Made by a program: the position numbers and the translations under genes. Shown here one piece after another: positions 23,450 to 33,292 of a stretch of DNA of 64,000 bases. Below the pieces are notes generated by a model that had not been told where the DNA came from, ran no database searches, and worked only from the letters and a program-made list of their open reading frames with translations. Each line of letters opens with the position of its first letter. Within the stretch, counting starts at the first letter, position 1. Source of the stretch: Phycisphaerae bacterium (lineage in GTDB: Bacteria; Planctomycetota; Phycisphaerae; UBA1845); contig CAXXGO010000001.1 of assembly GCA_963666835.2 (NCBI GenBank), positions 128,001 to 192,000 on the forward strand, read 5' to 3'.

Positions 23450-26400
23450 ATGAATACCGTAGCAATAGAAGTAAACGGAAAGTCGGTTAAGGCAAGACCG
23501 GGCCAGACGATCCTCGAAGTAGTCGAAGAACAGAAGTTGGATGATATTCCAACGCTGTGCCATTCGCCGGAGCTCAAGCCGTACGGTTCGTGCTTTGTGT
23601 GCGTGGTGGAAGTGGAAGGCCGGCCGACGCTAGTGCCATCGTGCGCTACCAAGATAGCCGAAGGAATGAAGATCAAGACCAATACGCCCCGTGTGCGCGA
23701 GTCGCGCAAGACGGCGTTCGAGTTCCTGCTATCCAACCACTATGCCGATTGCGTGTCACCGTGCAATCAGGGGTGCCCGGCCGGGGTCGATGCTCAGGGT
23801 TACATTGCCTTGGCGGCGATGGGTGAACACCGCAAGGCTGTGGATTTGGTTCGCCGGGCCAACCCTCTGCCGGCCGTGTGCGGGCGAATCTGCGTGCGCA
23901 AGTGCGAGGTGGTCTGTCGGCGACAGGATGTTGAAGAACCGGTGGCGATCAACCACATCAAGCGCTTCATTACCGACATGCCGGACGCCTACACCGGGAC
24001 TCCCGAACGTGAAGAGCCGAAGGGCAAGACCGTCGGCATCGTCGGCGCCGGACCGGCGGGGCTGACGGCCGGCTGGTTCCTGGGGCTGAAGGGCTACGAC
24101 GCGGTTGTGTATGAGAACATGCCGGCGGCCGGCGGGATGCTTCGTTACGGTATTCCGGAGTACCGATTGCCCAAGGCCGACCTCGATCGCGAGATCGAGT
24201 ACATCACCCGGGCCGGGGTCGAGATCAAATGCGGGACGAACATTGCCAAGGAAGCTACGGTTGACGAGCTAATGAAAAGGCACGCGGCCGTGTTCCTCTC
24301 GCCGGGGGCTTGGGGCGGCAAGGCGATGCGCGTCGAGGGTGAGTTCGATACGGAGGGGGTAGTCTCCGGGGTCGAGTATCTGATCGAGAAGGCCCAGAAG
24401 CCGGAGCCGGTGTCCGGAACGGTCGTGGTGGTCGGTGGTGGCAACACGGCCATGGACGCGGCGCGGACCTCGTGGCGTCTGGGAGCGTATAAGGTCATCA
24501 TCGTCTATCGCCGAACCAAGGCGGAGATGCCGGCGGATGAGCTGGAGATCGAAGACTGCCTGAAAGAGGGCATCGAGATTATGGAGCTGGTCGCTCCGGT
24601 GGGGGTCGTTCGGGACGGGAAGAAGCTGAAAGCGCTGCGGTGTATACGGATGCAGCTCGGCGAGCCGGATTCGTCCGGACGACGTCGTCCGGTGCCCAAA
24701 GAGGGAAGTGAATTCGACCTGCCTTGTGACCTTGCCATCTCCGCCATCGGGCAAACGCCTCTGGTTGAGGGCATGCTCGAAGGGATGAAGAGCCCGCCGG
24801 AGGTGTCGCGGTGGTCGACTCTCGATGTCGATACCGAGACGATGAAGACGAAAGTCGAAGGCCTGTTCGCGGGCGGTGACGCGGCCGACGACGGCCCGAC
24901 CGTGGTGATCGACGCCATTCGCGACGGACAGCGCGCCGCCAAGGCTATCCACGCCTACCTTTCCGGTGAAGAGCCGCCTAAGAAGCCCTTTGTGGTGAAT
25001 AAAGAGTTTTGGGCGAAGCCGGGTAAGCAGGAGCTTGGCGAGATTAAGCAAAGCCCGCGCCGGCACATGCACGAGATCCCCGTCGAGGAGCGGGCCGGTA
25101 GCTTCCGGGAAGTAGCCACCGGGTTTGAACATGAAGATACCATGCACGAGGCCGAAAGGTGCCTCTCGTGCGGGTGCGTTGCTTACGACTGGTGCAAGCT
25201 CCGCCGCTACGCGGAGCAGTACGACGTCGATATGGAGAAGTACAAGGGGTACGTCCGCAAGCACAAGGTAGATGACCGGCATCCATACCTGGTCTACGAC
25301 CCCAACAAGTGTGTTCTTTGCGCGCGGTGTATCCGCACGTGCGAGCGGGTCCTTCCGGTGGGAGCCCTCGGGCTGGTCAATCGCGGTTTCCAGGCGGAAG
25401 CGCGGCCGGCCATGGAGGACGCGCTCATCGACACGAGCTGCATCGCGTGCGGCAACTGCGTTGATGCCTGTCCGACCGGGGCACTTACGGTGAAGTTCCC
25501 CTTCCCCGGCCGGGCGTGCCTGGCCTTCGAAGAGACTGCGACCCGCTGTGCCCTCTGTTCGGTTGGCTGCGAGATCAAGGTCAAGAACTTCGGCGAAGAC
25601 CGTTACTTCATCGAGCCTTCCGGCAAGCCGGGGGCGTACCTCTGCTTCCAGGGGCGGTTTGTGAACGATTTATTCATCAACCGCAAGCGCCTGTTGAAGC
25701 CGATGGCTCGAGAGGGACTGACCCACGCCGAGACTACTTACCGCGATGCGTACGAGAAGGCGGTGGAGGGTCTCAAGAACGCCGCTGCGGAATACGGACC
25801 GGCGGCGGTGGCGGTGCTGGTCTCGCCGGAGCTGTCCAACGAGGAGATGTACCTGGCCTCGCGCATCGCCCGGGAGGGATTGGGCACGAACAACATCGCT
25901 TCGCTTTCGCTGATGGCCTCGGGGATGCCTTCCGGTGCCATGGATCAGTCACTCGGGTTCACGGCTTCTACGGCCGGGGTGGAGGCGTTGCGGGATTGCG
26001 ACCTGATATTCTGCAACAACACCGGCACGCAGGCGGATCAGCTTGTTTTGAGCGTGGAGATTCAAGAGGCCGCCAAGGCCGGGGCCAAGCTCGTTCTTTC
26101 GAAGTCTTCCGAGGATCCGCTTGACGTAATGGCCGATCTGAAGCTTGACCCGATTCGCGGGCGAGGTACCGCGCTGATTAACGGTATTATCCAATTGCTT
26201 ATCGAAGAGGGTTTCCTTGATCGGGGCAGGATCGAGACTATCCCGGGCGGTGAGGTCTTCCTTGAGGATACGCACGATTATTCGCTGGCGGTGACGGCCG
26301 CGCAGTCGGGGGTTATCGAAGACCGGATTCGCCAAGCCGCTGAGCTAATCAAGGCTGCCAAGAAGGTCGTGTTCGTTCATTCTCCCGATCGACCGCGAGA

Positions 26401-27166
26401 CCATGCGCCGGGCGATCTTCATGCGATGGCCAACCTTGCTCTGCTGCTGCGTTCGGCCGCGGGGATCGAGGCCGAGTTGGTTTTGGCTTATCAGGCCGGC
26501 AACGCGGCCGGAGTTGAAGTCTGCGGGGCGGATCCGGCGTTTATGCCGGGAAGAAAGCCGGTCACGGGCATTCCGGGGACTCGCAACCGGAGTGAGCTGC
26601 TGGCCGCCTTCTCCAGCGGGGCTATCAAGGCCGCTCTCGTTATCGGCGAAGATCCGATCCGCCACGATCGGACGGCGGCGTTGTTCAACTCCGTGGAGTT
26701 TCTTGCCGCGTGTGATTGGGCGGAGACGGAGACCACGCTGTTCGCGAATGTGGCGATTCCTTTGACGACGTATTTGGAGAGCGAGGGGACGCGCGTCAGC
26801 TTCCAGGGTGAGGTGATCGAGTTCAACGCGGCCGTTGGGGCGCCCAACGGGATCAAGACTTGGCACGTGCTTAAGAACCTCGCCGACCATCTTGGGGTAA
26901 AGGTCCCCGGAGTGTTCTCATCGATTTCCGCGAACCTTGCCAAGACCGTGAGGGCGAACCTGGCCGACCGCCTGCCGTTCTATTGGAATACCGGGCAGGC
27001 CCGGGCGTGGGACGGCAAGGGCGAGCTTACGGTGGCGGACGTTGCGACCGTTTCGTTCCCCGGGGCACCGGCCCTTACTCCGTGTGCCCAGCACAAGAAC
27101 GAGGTCCAGGAGATCGGTTTGAAGCACTACCGCGTGGGCTCAAAGGGAGTGCCGGCGGCGGGGTAA
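23450..27166 (+). CDS. NuoG-N + GltD-like NADPH/FAD + 4Fe-4S + cofactor-less molybdopterin-oxidoreductase fold fusion (StnC-like)
   Basis: PTLCH..GSCFVC; CGRICVRKC; GAGPAG; GGGNTAMD; YRR; CVLCARC; CALCSVGC; NNIASLS in place of the FdhA Cys/Sec ligand motif. Confidence 0.9.
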   Translation: MNTVAIEVNGKSVKARPGQTILEVVEEQKLDDIPTLCHSPELKPYGSCFVCVVEVEGRPTLVPSCATKIAEGMKIKTNTPRVRESRKTAFEFLLSNHYADCVSPCNQGCPAGVDAQGYIALAAMGEHRKAVDLVRRANPLPAVCGRICVRKCEVVCRRQDVEEPVAINHIKRFITDMPDAYTGTPEREEPKGKTVGIVGAGPAGLTAGWFLGLKGYDAVVYENMPAAGGMLRYGIPEYRLPKADLDREIEYITRAGVEIKCGTNIAKEATVDELMKRHAAVFLSPGAWGGKAMRVEGEFDTEGVVSGVEYLIEKAQKPEPVSGTVVVVGGGNTAMDAARTSWRLGAYKVIIVYRRTKAEMPADELEIEDCLKEGIEIMELVAPVGVVRDGKKLKALRCIRMQLGEPDSSGRRRPVPKEGSEFDLPCDLAISAIGQTPLVEGMLEGMKSPPEVSRWSTLDVDTETMKTKVEGLFAGGDAADDGPTVVIDAIRDGQRAAKAIHAYLSGEEPPKKPFVVNKEFWAKPGKQELGEIKQSPRRHMHEIPVEERAGSFREVATGFEHEDTMHEAERCLSCGCVAYDWCKLRRYAEQYDVDMEKYKGYVRKHKVDDRHPYLVYDPNKCVLCARCIRTCERVLPVGALGLVNRGFQAEARPAMEDALIDTSCIACGNCVDACPTGALTVKFPFPGRACLAFEETATRCALCSVGCEIKVKNFGEDRYFIEPSGKPGAYLCFQGRFVNDLFINRKRLLKPMAREGLTHAETTYRDAYEKAVEGLKNAAAEYGPAAVAVLVSPELSNEEMYLASRIAREGLGTNNIASLSLMASGMPSGAMDQSLGFTASTAGVEALRDCDLIFCNNTGTQADQLVLSVEIQEAAKAGAKLVLSKSSEDPLDVMADLKLDPIRGRGTALINGIIQLLIEEGFLDRGRIETIPGGEVFLEDTHDYSLAVTAAQSGVIEDRIRQAAELIKAAKKVVFVHSPDRPRDHAPGDLHAMANLALLLRSAAGIEAELVLAYQAGNAAGVEVCGADPAFMPGRKPVTGIPGTRNRSELLAAFSSGAIKAALVIGEDPIRHDRTAALFNSVEFLAACDWAETETTLFANVAIPLTTYLESEGTRVSFQGEVIEFNAAVGAPNGIKTWHVLKNLADHLGVKVPGVFSSISANLAKTVRANLADRLPFYWNTGQARAWDGKGELTVADVATVSFPGAPALTPCAQHKNEVQEIGLKHYRVGSKGVPAAG

Positions 27167-27329: not shown

Positions 27330-27432
27330 TCAACCCGTTTCGGGGTTGGTCTGAGAAGGGGGTTTGTGACGCAGGGTGGCAGTGAAGCGGCTGCGGCGCG
27401 TCGTTTACCCTGGGCTTTGTTGTGAAACGCCT
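27330..27432. repeat. REP-like element (left part), interrupted by the DUF1670 element
   Basis: caacccgtttcggggttg; cagggt...accctgggctttgttgtgaaacgc|ct, resuming at 29346 as tcggcgta. Confidence 0.6.
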
Positions 27433-27439
27433 ACCTTCC

Positions 27440-27454
27440 TGACATATGTCCACC
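27440..27454 (+). repeat. Left sub-terminal inverted repeat TGACATATGTCCACC
   Basis: Exact reverse complement of 29325-29339; contains the palindrome GACATATGTC. Confidence 0.9.
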
Positions 27455-27497
27455 CGGGTACCTTGGTAACGGACTTCGGGACTTGGGAGGACTACGC

Positions 27498-28349
27498 ATG
27501 GGGCTGCGGAACAAGAAGAAGGAGAGGCTTGAGCGTCTTGACTCGAAGACACTGGATGCCAAGTTTTTGCACGAAATCAAGCACGGACTCCATTGTTCGC
27601 CATTCGAGGCCGAGGCGGTTCTCGATGTGGTCAAGGAAGTTTACTTCCCGTACCTCGATGAACACGCCGGCAAGGCCCCACCTGGCAAGATTGGCTTGGT
27701 CGTCGTCGACGCCGACGAGCCTGCCGGGAAACCCGTCTGCGAATGCCAGAAGCAGAACGTGTGCCTGACAATCCACCGAGGTGCAGAGGATGATCGACTT
27801 CTGGAGGAGGAGGGGCCGGTCGGCTTTCGACAAGCCCGCATCCCACCGCTTTGCCAAGAAGCCCTGAGTCAAGGTGGGCTGCTCACGCGCGAAGATCTGG
27901 CCTACCGGATGTTCTTTGTTACGCCACGAACCATTACGCGCGATTTGAACGCTCTCCGGAGTGCGTATCCCGGGGTGCTTATTCCTCTGCGAGGAATCGT
28001 ACACGATCTTGGTCCCGTGTTGACTCATCGCAGCCAAATCGTGCGTTTGGCTCTGGAGGGAAAGACGACCTCACAGATCTGCACCATGCTTCGCCATTCA
28101 CCGGCGGCTGTAGCGAACTACGTCTCGACATTCACCCGTTGTGCGCAGTTGGCAAAGAAAGGTATGCAGGTCGGGCAAATCGCCTTCCTTCTGCGGAGAG
28201 GCAAGCGGTTGGTACAACAGTACCTTGATCTCCTCGACGAATGCGCGGTCGACAAGAACATGGGCTATCACCTGGAAGAACTGATGCGCCTGGGTTGTTG
28301 TGGCGGGGGGAAAAAGGGACACGGTGAAGAGGGAAGATCCGATGGGTAA
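27498..28349 (+). CDS. DUF1670-domain protein A (HTH-containing)
   Basis: RBS GGAGG; EALSQGGLLTREDLA, TITRDL, PLRGIVHDLGPVLTHR, HSPAAVANY. Confidence 0.85.
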   Translation: MGLRNKKKERLERLDSKTLDAKFLHEIKHGLHCSPFEAEAVLDVVKEVYFPYLDEHAGKAPPGKIGLVVVDADEPAGKPVCECQKQNVCLTIHRGAEDDRLLEEEGPVGFRQARIPPLCQEALSQGGLLTREDLAYRMFFVTPRTITRDLNALRSAYPGVLIPLRGIVHDLGPVLTHRSQIVRLALEGKTTSQICTMLRHSPAAVANYVSTFTRCAQLAKKGMQVGQIAFLLRRGKRLVQQYLDLLDECAVDKNMGYHLEELMRLGCCGGGKKGHGEEGRSDG

Positions 28350-29115
28350 GCCGCGAGACACCAACAGCAGAAGATACAGTCCCCTGCAGGCGAAAACGCT
28401 GAGAAACGTGTTGGCTCACCGCATCGAAACGGAGTTTCCACGCATAGGCGGCCCACGGATTCGCAACCTGTGCGCAGAGATGATCCTTGAGGTCATCGGT
28501 GCCCACGTTCTCCCGAAGGAGCATATCCAACATGGTCAGATACTCTGGATGGCGATCAGCAGCGCAGATCCCCCGAGTCAGCGTCGACGGATTGAGGATA
28601 CCGATCTGCTTCCGGTGGTCTTGGACGTGAGTACCTTCGAGGATATCGAGATGCGTTTGCAGAAGAAGGGACGTGGAGAGTTGCTCTTACAAAAGAGCTT
28701 GAGGTTATGCCGGCAGGCGTACGAACAAGGGGGCGTTCTGTCCAACTCTGATCTCTCGGAGTTGTTAGCAGTCAATGCGTCGGACGTCTCGCGATTGTTG
28801 GCGGCGTACGAACGCGAGACCGGTCAGATCGTCCCACGTCGCGCTACTGTCCACGATGTCGGCACAGGGCTTACGCACAAACGGATCATCTGTTTCAAAC
28901 ATTACGCAGAAGGCAAAGCGGCTAACGAAGTGGCTCGGGAAACGTACCACAGCCTTGAGGCTGTGGATCGTTACCTGGGCCAGTACGATCGCGTCCGCCA
29001 CTGCCATCTTCAGGGGCTGACGGCAAAGGAGACAGCCCATGCTTTAGGTTGCAGCATCTTCCTGGTTCAGGAGTACCTGGAGATCGATCATGAGTTGGAG
29101 GGCCAGCATGCTTGA
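28342..29115 (+). CDS. DUF1670-domain protein B
   Basis: QAYEQGGVLSNSDLS, PRRATVHDVGTGLTHK, HSLEAVDRY; 8-bp overlap with gene A. Confidence 0.85.
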   Translation: MGKPRDTNSRRYSPLQAKTLRNVLAHRIETEFPRIGGPRIRNLCAEMILEVIGAHVLPKEHIQHGQILWMAISSADPPSQRRRIEDTDLLPVVLDVSTFEDIEMRLQKKGRGELLLQKSLRLCRQAYEQGGVLSNSDLSELLAVNASDVSRLLAAYERETGQIVPRRATVHDVGTGLTHKRIICFKHYAEGKAANEVARETYHSLEAVDRYLGQYDRVRHCHLQGLTAKETAHALGCSIFLVQEYLEIDHELEGQHA

Positions 29116-29305
29116 CTCGATGGCACAGCACGTCAGACTTGTGTGTGCTGGTCGAGAGGACAGGGCTCTGCTGAGGAGCACCCCGAGCGCTCGTACCAGT
29201 GCCGGGACAGGCGCGGGAGTCTGCATGCACGGCGGGCTCTCGCTCTCCCTGGCCTGTTCTGGCTCCCAAGCGACAAACCTTGGGGGTCTGGGGGCAAAGC
29301 CCCCG
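29116..29305 (+). ncRNA. Candidate structured non-coding RNA at the 3' end of the element
   Basis: Four back-to-back stem-loops tile the region (see findings). Confidence 0.45.
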
Positions 29306-29324
29306 GTGATCGCCACACGGTCGC

Positions 29325-29339
29325 GGTGGACATATGTCA
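29325..29339 (+). repeat. Right sub-terminal inverted repeat GGTGGACATATGTCA
   Basis: Reverse complement of 27440-27454. Confidence 0.9.
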
Positions 29340-29469
29340 CTATCTTCGGCGTAAGCTGGATCCCGCGGCTCACGCCGTGGGCTAGGCAGAGCTGTCGCCC
29401 TGACGGGCTGGTTCCGCGAGCCACACGCGTGGCACATCTGCGTGCGGCTCGGACGATTACGGCCTTGAT

Positions 29470-29499
29470 GGCAGGTCTCGTGCCTCGACCGTGCCCTAC
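29470..29499 (+). repeat. Dispersed 30-bp REP-like repeat, family A
   Basis: GGCAGGTCTCGT[G/A]CCTCGACCGTGCCCTAC also at 48484, 48600 and 51321. Confidence 0.85.
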
Positions 29500-29629
29500 G
29501 AGTGGTGTCATCGGCTCCCCCATGTTCAGATTGTTCTACTCTGCACGAGCCTGACAGAAGCGTGGCATTAGAGAAACCCAATAGAACATGGGCCACCCGA
29601 TCGACGCCACCCGGCCGGATAGGCCGCGG

Positions 29630-32617
29630 CTATGACTGCGAGCCTGCATCCGATTCGTTGTCGAGGCGCTTTTTAACTTTCAACAGGCGCGATGTGTGGC
29701 TTTCATCGGAAGCGGATGCCGGCCCGCGTTCGGATGGGGTGCTTGTAGTCGGGCGATGTGTCTGCGGAATACTGTATCCCGATTGCCGCGCGGGCCGGTT
29801 GGCGCGGCAATCGGGGTTTACTTGTTCGTCGCGGCGTTGCGGCTGGTCCGTTGGCGGCTTGCCGGACTCACGCGTCTGGCTATGCGATTCGCGGAGGGCG
29901 GCGAGCGTTGCCACGCTTTTGGCGGCAACCTCTCTGGCGCCGAGTCCGTCCGTCCATCCGGTGAGTTTCTGGAAAAGCTCGGCGGGTGTGACCGCAAGGC
30001 GACGCACGGCCACATCCAACAAGAACAACCCCAATGCGAACTTAACCAGCAGTTCCCAGACGGAGCGACGAATCTGCACCGGACGGATGCTCGACCGCTC
30101 GAAGACCATGTCCGGGTACTGGGCACTGAGCACCCGACCGCCCGTCTTGCGAGCGAGGCCGGCGAGCGTTGTGTCATCATGCGTCATTGTCGCGTACTCC
30201 TTCGAGAAGCTGACGACAATGCCGGTCCTGAGCGTACCCGAGTGCCGCCGGCGTCCTTCTCCCTGCGAATAGGCCATGTTGACCAGGTACGTCCCCGGGA
30301 GGTCCGCTGAGAAATCCGCCTCCAACCGCCCGGACGCCGTACGCTCGAAGTGGAGCGGTTTCGACGAATAGTCCGGCTGAATCAGGCGGCCGGTCAGCTC
30401 CAGCGACGTTTGCAGTTCCCTCGGCAGGTACTCGGCCGATACAACCACGTGGCCGACCCCGTTTTTGACCGACGATTCGACTTCGAGGTCCGACGCATTC
30501 GACGACCTCCCGGCGTACCGGACGACCTGCGTCCAGAGCTTGCTGAAGCTCGGCCACGCCACCCACTGCGGCGCCCAATGATTCCACAGGCCGCTGGTGA
30601 AGGCCACCGCTCGGCCAAGGCCCTCCTGCCAATAGGCGAGAATCGGATCGGAGCCCTCGTCGGTGGGGCGGAACAACGGAACCGATGCCGCCGGCTTGGC
30701 AGAAGCCACGACGTGGCCGCGCAGCGCCGGAATGTCCGACTGCGAGAACCCCACCATAATCCGCTCGTTGTCGCTTTCATCGAGCCGTGGCGTGAACGGT
30801 CTCTCGTATAGTCCGGACGTACTGGCTAATACCGTCTCGTGAACGAAGATCTGCGGCAGCGGCTGTGCACTTCGGGCGGTGTACATTCTGCCCTGACTCA
30901 GCGTTGCAATCCGGGCAAGAAGTGCCCGATCGGCGTCCGGCCCAACGGCAATCGTCGAAACGGTGATGCCCGCATCACAGCACTTTCCGGCGAGCGCTTC
31001 GAAATCTCCGTGAACGGACTTACCGTCCGTGAGCACGATTACGTGCTTCAGGTTAGCGTCCAGAGGGAGCAGGGCGGCATATGCCTGCTCCAGTGCCGGG
31101 AACATGTTCGTCCCGCCGCCGCCGGCAATCGTGGAGATCATGCGCGCAATCGCAGTTCGATCGGCAGCGGTGCGAATCGGAACCACGCACTCCGGCATGC
31201 TGTCGAACGCGATCACACCAATGCGATCCAGCGGACCAAGCAGTTGAACGGCTCCCATCGCTGCCTGTCGGGCCATTGCCAGCTTCTCTCCGCTCATCGA
31301 TCCGGACCGGTCGATGACAATCACCATGGCCAGACTGAGCAGCTTGAGCTTGTCGCGATCGGTCTCGACCGGCAGGACTTCCTCGAGCGTAGTATGAGCG
31401 TAGCCACCGACGCTAAAGGACTGATCGCCGCCGATGACGACTAATCCACCGCCCTGATCGCGAACGAACGAGGCGATCATCTTCTGGAGGTTCTCCCCCA
31501 GCGCAAAGGCCGACACATTGCAGAGAATCAGCGTCGAGCAGTCCGCCAGAGATGCCGGATCGGCCGGCAGTCTATGGAGCGAGATCTGTTCGACCTCGAT
31601 GCCGCCCTTGCGCAGCGCCTCGGCCAGGACCCGCGCGCCCTCTCGATCGCTTTGAGACGAAGAACCCGCTACGATTAGCACGCGTTCCGCCTGTCCGACG
31701 ATCGTAAACGCGCTGCCCTGGTTGTTGATGGCCATGGTGTCCGCAAGCTTATCGTCCGGGCTGATGACCGCCGTGAATCGATGGACGCCGGAGGTCGGCA
31801 GTTGCACCGGAATGGCATATCGGTTTGCCCCGGCGTCAAGGTGGATTGGCAACGATGACGCTTCTGAAGACTCGTCCAGATCAACGAGTCGGTCGTTATG
31901 GTAGAGGCGCAGGTGAGCGGCCGTCGGGAGCTGCGAGCGTATGAACAGTTGAAGGTCAATGACCTCGTCGCGGTTGGCAGTTGCGGGCGCGGACAGCCGT
32001 TCCACAATGATTTCCGACTGATGTTCGTACTGGAGGGGCAGCACGTCGATTGGGATCCCAAGCGCCGCATAGGTTTGCGCGACCTCGGAGGAGACCGCGC
32101 GGTTTTCGTTGCCGTCGGAGATCAGAACCAGCCGCTTGGAAGTCTGCGCCGGGAAGAGCCCTAGACCGAGCTTTAACACGGAAGCGATGTTGGTTTCATG
32201 ACGCCGGGTAGCCGGGGGAAGCCGGTCGGTGGTGAGTCCCGACTTCGGAAGCTGCCACACGGATGGCCGTCCGGCGAATCCGACGCCCGCAACGAGGTCC
32301 TTGCCCGGCCGCATTGTCTTGGTGGCGGCGTTTATGAAACCCAAGGCCTCGTTTTCCAACCAACCGGGGATACTGCCGGATGTGTCGAGGGCGAAGACTA
32401 CTGTTTGGTCGTCGGTGGTACGGACCCATTGTGGGTCTGCCAGCGCGACAATAAGCACGACAACTACGAGGCACCGCAAACCAACGGCGAGCTTTCTCCT
32501 AACCGTTCCCAGAGCGGCGAGAGAGCGACGAGTGAGCAAGACAATGACCGGCAGAATCGCCACAAGAGCGAAGTAGCCGGGCTGTCCGAATTCGACAAAC
32601 ATTGGTAGCGGCGGCAT
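29630..32617 (-). CDS. Membrane-anchored double-vWA protein with GATase-like (DUF1355-type) domain
   Basis: N-terminal TMs; MIDAS DTSGS and DRSGS; LISDGNEN, LTDG; GGGLVVIGG..SF..GGY; C-terminal TM. Start reassigned to MPPLPMF. Confidence 0.85.
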   Translation of the reverse strand: MPPLPMFVEFGQPGYFALVAILPVIVLLTRRSLAALGTVRRKLAVGLRCLVVVVLIVALADPQWVRTTDDQTVVFALDTSGSIPGWLENEALGFINAATKTMRPGKDLVAGVGFAGRPSVWQLPKSGLTTDRLPPATRRHETNIASVLKLGLGLFPAQTSKRLVLISDGNENRAVSSEVAQTYAALGIPIDVLPLQYEHQSEIIVERLSAPATANRDEVIDLQLFIRSQLPTAAHLRLYHNDRLVDLDESSEASSLPIHLDAGANRYAIPVQLPTSGVHRFTAVISPDDKLADTMAINNQGSAFTIVGQAERVLIVAGSSSQSDREGARVLAEALRKGGIEVEQISLHRLPADPASLADCSTLILCNVSAFALGENLQKMIASFVRDQGGGLVVIGGDQSFSVGGYAHTTLEEVLPVETDRDKLKLLSLAMVIVIDRSGSMSGEKLAMARQAAMGAVQLLGPLDRIGVIAFDSMPECVVPIRTAADRTAIARMISTIAGGGGTNMFPALEQAYAALLPLDANLKHVIVLTDGKSVHGDFEALAGKCCDAGITVSTIAVGPDADRALLARIATLSQGRMYTARSAQPLPQIFVHETVLASTSGLYERPFTPRLDESDNERIMVGFSQSDIPALRGHVVASAKPAASVPLFRPTDEGSDPILAYWQEGLGRAVAFTSGLWNHWAPQWVAWPSFSKLWTQVVRYAGRSSNASDLEVESSVKNGVGHVVVSAEYLPRELQTSLELTGRLIQPDYSSKPLHFERTASGRLEADFSADLPGTYLVNMAYSQGEGRRRHSGTLRTGIVVSFSKEYATMTHDDTTLAGLARKTGGRVLSAQYPDMVFERSSIRPVQIRRSVWELLVKFALGLFLLDVAVRRLAVTPAELFQKLTGWTDGLGAREVAAKSVATLAALRESHSQTRESGKPPTDQPQRRDEQVNPDCRANRPARQSGYSIPQTHRPTTSTPSERGPASASDESHTSRLLKVKKRLDNESDAGSQS

Positions 32618-32673
32618 CGTTGATCTATTATAGGCGCCGGGGGTGTGCATTGGAACGGTCAATCTGCCGGGTG

Positions 32674-32714
32674 GCCGGGTGCCGGGTGCCATGCCCCACG
32701 CTTGCGTGGGCATG
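32674..32714 (+). repeat. REP-like palindrome, family B
   Basis: GCCGGGTGCCGGGTGCCATGCCCCACGCTTGCGTGGGCATG; related copies at ~33417 (reverse), 48402 and 48518. Confidence 0.75.
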
Positions 32715-32794
32715 TAGAGAGCCGATGGGTGGCCGACGCTGGCGCGGACGATAGCGCCCGCACATGGCACCTCTCGTGTGATGAGGTGAGACGC

Positions 32795-33292
32795 ATGGAA
32801 CCGAAGATACCAGACACAGCGGTTTGCCTCGGTTGCGGTTACTCCCTCAGAGGGCTGCCGGAGGAGCGATGCCCGGAATGTGGGCGTTCGTTCAGTTGGA
32901 ACGATGCGACCACATACCGCGTGCAAAAGGCTGCGTCGAGCCGATGCTGGTTTGATATCGCCATCCAGGGCTCGCTGATTCTGGCGACGGTTCTGCTGTG
33001 GTTTCGCGTGCTGACGACAACACGCCCAATCTCGGGGTATGGTGTCTACGGGCGTATCGTGTCACTTGCGGCGATTTGCTTCTCGATACTGAGTCTCCGC
33101 CGTCTTGGGTATGGACCCGCCTCGCGTCGCAACCGCGCGGCTGAAGTGTGCTTACTCCTGGTTCTCTACGCCATGTGGTTTGTTCTGTATTCGCCATGGC
33201 GCTTCCGGGATGCGTTTTCGTCTTGTTTCCCATCGTTGCAGTCAGCGTGGCCAGTCACGTTCTTCACCGATGGCGCTCCGACCGGTTGGTGA
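32795..33292 (+). CDS. Zinc-finger (CxxC..CPEC) membrane protein
   Basis: CLGCGYSLRGLPEERCPECG followed by three hydrophobic helices; RBS GAGGTG. Confidence 0.7.
   Translation: MEPKIPDTAVCLGCGYSLRGLPEERCPECGRSFSWNDATTYRVQKAASSRCWFDIAIQGSLILATVLLWFRVLTTTRPISGYGVYGRIVSLAAICFSILSLRRLGYGPASRRNRAAEVCLLLVLYAMWFVLYSPWRFRDAFSSCFPSLQSAWPVTFFTDGAPTGW

Follow-up and report, generated by a model that had tools for sequence, protein, structure and literature searches.

Which enzyme moves an insertion sequence (IS) whose ends are built like those of the IS1111 group but which encodes no DEDD or DDE transposase? This question is raised by a locus at positions 27431–29345 of a 64,000-nt stretch of Phycisphaerae bacterium DNA (GenBank assembly GCA_963666835.2, contig CAXXGO010000001.1, positions 128,001 to 192,000 of the forward strand; hereafter the window), in which two overlapping genes for DUF1670 proteins, orfA and orfB (products A and B), lie between inverted repeats. 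The unit is a recently active mobile element that enters one dinucleotide of a hairpin resembling a repetitive extragenic palindrome (REP), and its 3′ non-coding region is, as covariation indicates, a structured RNA gene. As to what drives it, we give an even chance to autonomy: the element would be a site-specific insertion sequence from a family not yet described, in which a 2-nt-core exchange is directed, and probably also catalysed, by the DUF1670 pair.

A 1913-bp mobile unit and its REP-like target

The original prediction for this locus had described a perfect 15-bp inverted repeat, spacers of 7 nt (left) and 4 nt (right) separating the repeats from a CT at either junction, a total length of 1913 bp and, between the repeats, two overlapping paralogous DUF1670 open reading frames (ORFs) followed by a 3′ non-coding region of about 210 nt, and on all of these points the sequence reads as stated. 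The left sub-terminal repeat is TGACATATGTCCACC (27440–27454) and its exact reverse complement, GGTGGACATATGTCA, lies at 29325–29339, the pair being listed by the repeat finder; the left copy is palindromic at 11 of its first 12 nt, and the 15-bp repeats are near-palindromic. The spacers are ACCTTCC on the left and CTAT on the right (Table 1), the latter comparing with a right extension of 3–4 nt in IS1111 elements, and the non-coding stretch 3′ of orfB measures 209 nt. No conserved ORF besides orfA and orfB was found inside the repeats, either among the window ORFs or in related loci.

In the source assembly (6.0 Mb, 7 contigs, 92% complete), the search for copies at other sites that the original prediction had proposed recovered, with a 1915-nt query, six full copies differing from the window copy at 0, 0, 1, 4, 4 and 4 of 1915 bases. 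The 15-mer repeat occurs 13 times genome-wide, each of the six copies accounting for two occurrences and a solo right end (C6:1881239–1881279) for the last, and the DUF1670 family (PF07900) has 12 matches in the genome, two in each copy. In Logan contigs from four public runs the element forms a separate contig, spanning 27426–29334 or 27426–29345, with a depth of ~16 compared to ~4 for the left flank (~4x). The 1913-bp unit is, well beyond chance, a real mobile element and has been recently active; six near-identical copies at one target, together with relatives that keep the repeats and their offsets, bear out its earlier description as an IS-like element with IS1111-style ends.

All six copies occupy one target in one orientation, preceded by A(C/T)GCCT and followed by CT(T/A)CGGCGTA, the flanks diverging further out. 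The target is a REP-like mini-hairpin, ACGC[CT]TCGGCGT, which is present in the genome as 44 exact uninterrupted copies of ACGCCTTCGGCGT, all preceded by the same REP-like hairpin, and the filled site has the layout ACGC-CT-ACCTTCC-[repeat ... repeat]-CTAT-CT-TCGGCGT. CT stands at both junctions in six of six copies, compared to a single CT in the uninterrupted target, and comparison of uninterrupted targets with filled sites therefore defines the element as 27433–29343 plus one CT. The insertion point is one dinucleotide at the loop edge of the mini-hairpin, and no bases are added beyond this dinucleotide, be it a 2-bp core or a 2-bp duplication, which sequence cannot separate.

The mini-hairpin is part of a REP-like system, also resembling bacterial interspersed mosaic elements, that extends genome-wide and comprises at least three classes of CCAGGGT...ACCCTGGG hairpin, which frequently occur as pairs, each hairpin being followed by an ACGCC-NNN-GGCGT mini-hairpin. 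A pattern search for the REP-like hairpin gave 144 genome matches on both strands; among the matches displayed, many continue with CT, 8 nt and AACGCCTTCGGCGTA, so that the unit pattern there is hairpin, CT plus 8 nt, then AACGCC TTC GGCGTA. Logan contigs of other REP copies share the window sequence as far as 27432 and run into TCGGCGTAAG from there, which marks the same breakpoint.

Two further sites, C6:739721 and C5:242190, were at one stage considered as empty targets with a 10-bp palindromic duplication, a view that was dropped once the REP survey had given the true uninterrupted target. Both carry TGACATATGTCA between the flanks and are short element remnants inside REP targets. The remnant at C6:739721–739760 reads CT-ACCTTCC-TGACATATGTCA-CTAT-CT, its ends being fused at the 12-bp palindromic repeat (7 nt, palindrome, 4 nt), and the one at C5:242190–242230 is a perfect right-end/right-end palindrome, TACGCCGAAGATAG-TGACATATGTCA-CTATCTTCGGCGTA. 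Both remnants suggest breakage or exchange at the repeat centre.

The DUF1670 pair and its relatives

Both proteins match PF07900 well above its curated cut-off of 25 bits, A with 129.2 bits (E 1.9e-37) and B with 168.5 bits (E 1.9e-49), and A additionally matches HTH_23 (PF13384, E 1.7e-5), a helix-turn-helix (HTH) family. Non-synonymous divergence from relatives is 0.17–0.30 for orfA and lies within 0.17–0.34 for both genes, synonymous divergence being saturated; judged from these values, orfA and orfB are under purifying selection. In the structure models (mean predicted local distance difference test score 79.4 for A and 90.5 for B), each protein has three N-terminal helices, two strands and one helix, followed by three HTH-like units, and A and B are predicted to be multi-HTH proteins. 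A search of a protein atlas gave HTH clusters only, with scores ≤0.81, and the sole match of a PDB sequence profile was 8vd6, described as a de novo designed repeat protein (PMC12339374). Prediction of an A + B complex gave a score of 0.06.

Alignment of the two paralogue types revealed residues invariant in both (G63, D170, G172, H177, H200 and Y208 in A numbering) and others that are nearly so (R165, H169, P163, R214 and Y242). This conserved polar set appears to exceed the needs of plain DNA binding. Long DUF1670 proteins (504–952 aa) are double or triple repeats devoid of a known catalytic domain; three other long proteins contain DnaG zinc-ribbon parts (P0122 and P0127) or a UvrD part (P0263), which look like read-through into neighbouring genes. 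No paper naming DUF1670 or PF07900 was found among the article texts searched.

Homologues of orfA number 1432 at E ≤ 0.001, and for 102 of the best 120 the longest contig is ≤5 kb, as expected because repeats of ~2 kb break assemblies; for orfB, 970 representatives were found. Across the order the distribution is patchy, with a relative at E ≤ 1e-20 in 9 of 201 genomes, the present one included. A search of genome contigs returned no related loci and a search of metagenome contigs returned three. The order orfA-orfB-RNA is kept in all eight related loci that reach far enough, and the 3′ non-coding region is alignable in nine loci.

The original prediction had proposed that DUF1670-pair loci be aligned for conserved sub-terminal repeats and a CT core. 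The repeats and the 7/4 geometry are indeed kept in five related elements from other genomes, whereas CT as a general core did not hold. What is conserved is that the dinucleotides at both junctions match, as observed in six of six elements with both flanks known: CT in the present element and in L011, TT in L010, L024 and L025, and GT in L012. Left ends of relatives read (T)ACCTTC(C/T), ACCATCT or AGCATCT, followed by TGACATATGTC, TGACAATTGTC or TGCCAAATGGC, and right ends read CTAT, ATAT, AGAT, AGAA or ACAT after the mirror repeat. The relatives are flanked by small GC-rich hairpins, e.g. GCCCC-CT-CTGGGGGC in L011, and three elements of the L010 sub-lineage share CACRACTRCC a few bases before the insertion point. 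Among 80 public-genome loci with the left-end motif, orfA lies 65–75 nt downstream in six, 60 resemble chance matches and the other 14 do not extend far enough for a judgement.

The structured RNA 3′ of orfB

The region downstream of orfB is alignable across elements of 55–75% protein identity, and its 40-nt 5′ domain is nearly invariant. RNAalifold predicted 40 pairs in this alignment, 20 of them with compensatory changes, the folding z-score of the window copy is −3.59, and frequent G-U pairs place the RNA on the plus strand. The covariation supports reading this region as a gene for a structured RNA. A covariance model, R1, scores 165 bits on the window RNA, and Rfam 15 gave no family for it at E ≤ 1, nor for five other RNA loci at E ≤ 0.1. 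TTGAC lies over the orfB stop in nine of ten DUF1670-type sequences, with GACAAT or ATAATA after a gap of 17 nt; in the window copy, where the −10 is weak, the RNA promoter was missed by a consensus scan.

According to the covariance model, the genome carries 12 copies of the RNA: six in the DUF1670 elements, one in a relic at C6:796202 and five in an 1827-bp IS110-family element, which is described below. The relic (C6:796202–796400; L007/L028) derives from a second DUF1670-type lineage; its RNA, of 79% identity, precedes the right repeat GGTGGGACAATTGTCA and AGAA-GG, and there is no DUF1670 gene upstream. With 35 of 151 genomes of the order, the RNA has a wider spread than DUF1670, and one genome (G034) holds nine copies; no RNA holders are listed for public runs. 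The 25 RNA loci that lack DUF1670 (L033–L057) have as neighbours IS3-type (rve) genes in four cases, IS21 (IstA/IstB) genes in five, and an ISL3 and a UPF0236 gene in one each, and for the remaining 14 no transposase lies within reach. The RNA stands directly after the IS3, IS21 and UPF0236-type genes, beside the ISL3 gene, or alone, and in the IS3-type loci it is followed by a hairpin, CCGGGAGACGGTCTCCCGG, and then by the element end. As judged by these neighbourhoods, the RNA appears to be an uncatalogued family riding on six kinds of insertion sequence in this order (DUF1670, IS3, IS21, ISL3, UPF0236-type and IS110-family).

The original prediction had taken the 3′ non-coding region as an IS1111-type feature, which does not fit a structured RNA gene that is also present in IS3, IS21, ISL3 and IS110-family elements and that shows no target complementarity above controls. 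The RNA and its own target have no word longer than 5 nt in common, less than is seen in cross-pairings, although split guides of 4–6 nt would escape such a comparison. For the whole element against the target, the counts are at chance level (nine 7-mers versus 6.3 and two 8-mers versus 1.5) and all lie in coding sequence. Moreover, the RNA variants do not follow the repeat variants. A role of the RNA as target guide, with complementarity above neither cross-pairings nor chance, received no support. Because it matches no target and is common to these other elements, we regard the RNA as an add-on module and not as an IS1111-type seekRNA.

Table 1. Features of the DUF1670 element and its flanks (window positions; all on the plus strand)
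Feature	Position	Strand	Basis and remarks
REP-like hairpin CAGGGT...ACCCTGGG	27372..27414	+	Host repeat unit carrying the target, outside the element; differs among the six insertion sites, the element does not
Left half of target mini-hairpin (ACGCC) and core CT (27431-27432)	27427..27432	+	Uninterrupted ACGCCTTCGGCGT present 44 times; other REP copies diverge after 27432
Left-end extension ACCTTCC, 7 nt, outside the repeat	27433..27439	+	Sequence; relatives ACCTTCC, ACCTTCT, ACCATCT, AGCATCT
Left sub-terminal inverted repeat TGACATATGTCCACC	27440..27454	+	Repeat finder; relatives carry TGACATATGTC, TGACAATTGTC or TGCCAAATGGC variants
orfA, 283 aa, DUF1670 and HTH_23; GGGAGGA 6 nt 5′ of ATG	27498..28349	+	Pfam
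orfB, 257 aa, DUF1670; start overlaps orfA stop (ATGGGTAA)	28342..29115	+	Pfam; paralogue of A, about 25-30% identity
Promoter-like site for the RNA: -35 TTGACT over the orfB TGA stop, weak -10 (CAGACT/AGACTT) 16-17 nt on	29112..29140	+	Sequence reading, relatives
Structured RNA gene: 5′ domain GAGAGGACAGGGC...CCCGAGCGCUCG, long variable hairpin, AAGCGACAAACC, 3′ hairpin	29145..29307	+	Covariation, folding
Right sub-terminal inverted repeat GGTGGACATATGTCA	29325..29339	+	Repeat finder
Right-end extension CTAT, 4 nt	29340..29343	+	Sequence; relatives CTAT, ATAT, AGAT, AGAA, ACAT
Core CT (29344-29345) and right half of target mini-hairpin (TCGGCGT)	29344..29352	+	Insertion flanks, uninterrupted targets

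The element is flanked by a 1238-aa ORF (23450–27166, plus strand) and a 1098-aa ORF (29630–32926, minus strand), both of them uninterrupted. At 29406–29550, summed contig depth in the four public runs is 255–2249, compared to ~16 for the element; this stretch contains GGCAGGTCTCGTGCCTCGACCGTGCCCTACGAG, which is also found beside other element copies, and represents a second, very abundant short repeat family.

What moves the element

In the autonomous model, A and B, each composed of three HTH units and a small N-terminal domain, would recognise, in dimeric or heterodimeric form, both the near-palindromic 12-bp repeats of the two ends and the hairpin of the target. The ends would be paired into a circle with the junction ...ATGTCA-CTAT-CT-ACCTTCC-TGACAT..., and strand exchange between circle and target would follow at the common dinucleotide, with an outcome as in IS1111/IS110, except that the target would be chosen by protein and not by a guide RNA. 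The invariant polar residues of the second HTH and of the segment that links it to the first (R165, H169, D170, H177, H200 and Y208 of A) may include the catalytic ones. The RNA module would be an add-on common to other insertion sequences; its putative promoter points outward through the right end and, in the circle, might read across the junction into A and B. Taken to its full extent, such a model would make the DUF1670 pair a new class of HTH-repeat recombinase or transposase that reaches the IS1111 outcome independently of a DEDD enzyme or guide RNA and has a protein-programmed target, the uncatalogued RNA family travelling along; to this wider claim we assign somewhat less than an even chance.

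Several results weigh against autonomy. Pfam at E ≤ 0.1 detected only DUF1670 and HTH families in A and B, and no DEDD or DDE domain, in agreement with the original prediction, while the same analysis recognised PF01548 and PF02371 in the protein of the resident 1827-bp element, which served as positive control. With B as query, Foldseek returned nothing from the PDB at E ≤ 0.001, and thus no catalytic fold. VIA-align of A and B against 48,161 chains gave matches of HTH type only (Z ≤ 6.5), namely to TrpR-like proteins, sigma region 4, DnaA domain IV, DeoR, NiaR and the resolvase HTH (the latter at Z 5.0–5.5), with the N-terminal ~100 residues barely covered. A known DDE or DEDD fold, which the original prediction had named as incompatible with its proposal, was found by neither structure search, the N-terminal part being subject to the same limit. 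However, its proposal that the DUF1670 pair is the recombinase gained no backing from models of tandem HTH units in which no catalytic fold is recognised, in a genome that also holds a DEDD element. Both models look like pure DNA-binding proteins, as far as predicted structures can tell. Neither a circle joint nor an empty allele at the locus was present in the assembled contigs of the four public runs. Furthermore, the DNA anatomy is exactly that made by DEDD transposases, PF01548 matches occur in all five other DUF1670-bearing genomes tested (four of them over the Pfam cut-off), and in another genome (L010; G108:C43 282–1440) the left end of the DUF1670 element lies ~50 nt upstream of the start of a divergent 367-aa IS110-family transposase gene. 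Finally, a partner element could have escaped the assembly, whose completeness is 92%.

The resident DEDD element is 1827 bp long and present in five copies of 99.8–100% identity (reference L027 501–2327, C6:1566313–1569139). It encodes a 395-aa DEDD transposase on the minus strand (PF01548 and PF02371), followed by a 560-nt non-coding region 3′ of the gene, and carries its copy of the RNA family on the strand opposite the transposase. Its sub-terminal repeats are CATGAAAGGC/GCCTTTCATG, its flanks are not REP, and its genes are the only DEDD genes of the genome, with ends unlike those of the DUF1670 element. The main rival explanation is built on such an enzyme: the DUF1670 unit would be a non-autonomous IS1111-type element moved in trans by an IS110-family DEDD transposase, with A and B as cargo or as accessory end-binding factors. 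The 7/4 ends, the 2-nt core, the lack of any larger duplication, the choice of REP targets and the length of the 3′ non-coding region all fit the IS1111 group as described in PMC11187229, according to which cargo between IS ends moves if transposase and seekRNA are supplied, and ISPpu9, as presented in PMC12288879, offers a case of a small-RNA module spreading via an IS110-family transposase; the five-copy DEDD element, the PF01548 matches in other hosts and the DEDD gene close to the G108 element point the same way. Yet the resident element has other sub-terminal repeats and non-REP flanks, IS1111-type movement needs a seekRNA with segments that match both strands of the target, no match of this kind was found in the DUF1670 element, and the sole conserved RNA is common to DDE-type elements. 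Moreover, A and B are intact and, by the divergence values, under purifying selection across lineages, and a DEDD gene adjoins the DUF1670 element in only one of six loci examined and in none of the 80 loci from public genomes that carry the left-end motif (14 of them too short to judge). Because of these differences in ends and flanks, the lack of a target-matching RNA, the rarity of adjoining DEDD genes and the conservation of A and B wherever the ends are, we keep autonomy at an even chance and consider mobilisation in trans unlikely, albeit a serious contender.

Improbable, in our view, is a division of labour in which A and B merely mark the ends and the target, and a recruited host enzyme, either a REP-associated Y1 transposase or a housekeeping recombinase or nuclease, cuts and joins. 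It would account for two proteins that look like DNA binders only and for a REP-type hairpin as target, elements borrowing host Xer recombinases exist, and the genome contains nine Y1_Tnp (PF01797) matches that resemble REP-associated tyrosine transposases, some with flanking REP hairpins (e.g. C1:801499 and C1:288162). However, relatives in distant lineages use different targets, so that the partner would be needed everywhere, and the invariant His, Asp and Tyr residues in both paralogues exceed what plain DNA binding would seem to require. Y1 enzymes, in addition, act on single-stranded hairpins much longer than 12 nt, the length of the repeats here. More improbable still, and in our opinion very much so, is an ordinary cut-and-paste or copy-and-paste element with a metal-dependent active site in DUF1670 and a 2-bp stagger, the dinucleotide being a target duplication and not a crossover core. 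Sequence alone would look the same in both cases, IS630/Tc1-type transposases combine N-terminal HTH pairs with a 2-bp duplication, and the HTH of A has a weak, sub-threshold NCBIfam match to transpos_IS630 (E 0.066), which covers only profile positions 2–39 of 299. Nevertheless, Pfam and NCBIfam found no DDE domain, and termini that differ both in sequence (left ACCTTCC, right CTAT) and in their spacing from the repeats would be unusual for enzymes that treat both ends alike.

If the DUF1670 pair is self-sufficient, it would represent an uncatalogued transposase type consisting of two proteins of ~270 aa, base-exact and aimed by protein. It would bear on the question of how site-specific insertion like that of IS1111/IS110 can arise independently of a DEDD enzyme and a bridge or seek RNA, and might offer a new scaffold for targeted DNA insertion. 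The abundance of the family (for A, 1432 close homologues, the majority on contigs of repeat length) would then also account for a widely distributed 'domain of unknown function' and for many breaks in assemblies of planctomycete and other environmental genomes. If, on the other hand, the element is moved in trans, it would be a natural cargo-bearing IS1111 derivative and a test case for hitch-hiker specificity. The common RNA module poses a separate question, namely what role one RNA plays for IS3, IS21, ISL3, IS110-family and DUF1670 elements alike.

Comparison with known systems

The present analysis adds an uninterrupted REP target from which the ends follow with base precision, the rule of matching dinucleotides across five relatives, and the membership of the tail RNA in a family shared with IS3, IS21, ISL3, UPF0236-type and IS110-family elements. 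With IS630/Tc1-mariner elements the DUF1670 element has in common tandem HTH units and a 2-nt junction repeat, whereas the C-terminal DDE domain, the TA target and the equivalent terminal repeats of IS630 have no counterpart here, where the dinucleotides are CT, TT and GT. A conservative exchange with a 2-nt overlap via a circle, as in IS607-type serine transposases and serine integrases, would yield the junctions seen; the likeness is limited to the resolvase HTH and does not extend to a resolvase-type catalytic domain.

For the IS1111 group, PMC11187229 describes sub-terminal repeats, a required 7-bp left extension, the absence of added bases and a downstream non-coding region. On the basis of that account, the present element resembles IS1111/IS110 elements such as ISEc11, ISPa11 and ISKpn4 in its sub-terminal repeats, in the 7-nt left and short right extensions, in the lack of a duplication beyond the common dinucleotide, in having one exact target per lineage and REP-type targets, and in the long non-coding region after the genes. 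It differs in that two DUF1670 multi-HTH proteins replace the DEDD/RuvC-like transposase (PF01548, PF02371), and in that no target-complementary RNA segment was found in the element, the RNA of its non-coding region being present in DDE-type elements as well. ISPpu9 and its small-RNA gene ssr9, as portrayed in PMC12288879, are akin to the present element in targeting REP sequences and in having, after the protein gene, a small-RNA gene that is dispensable for targeting and behaves as a hitch-hiking module. In contrast to the DUF1670 element, ISPpu9 encodes a DEDD transposase, and the RNA family encountered here rides on at least five other kinds of element.

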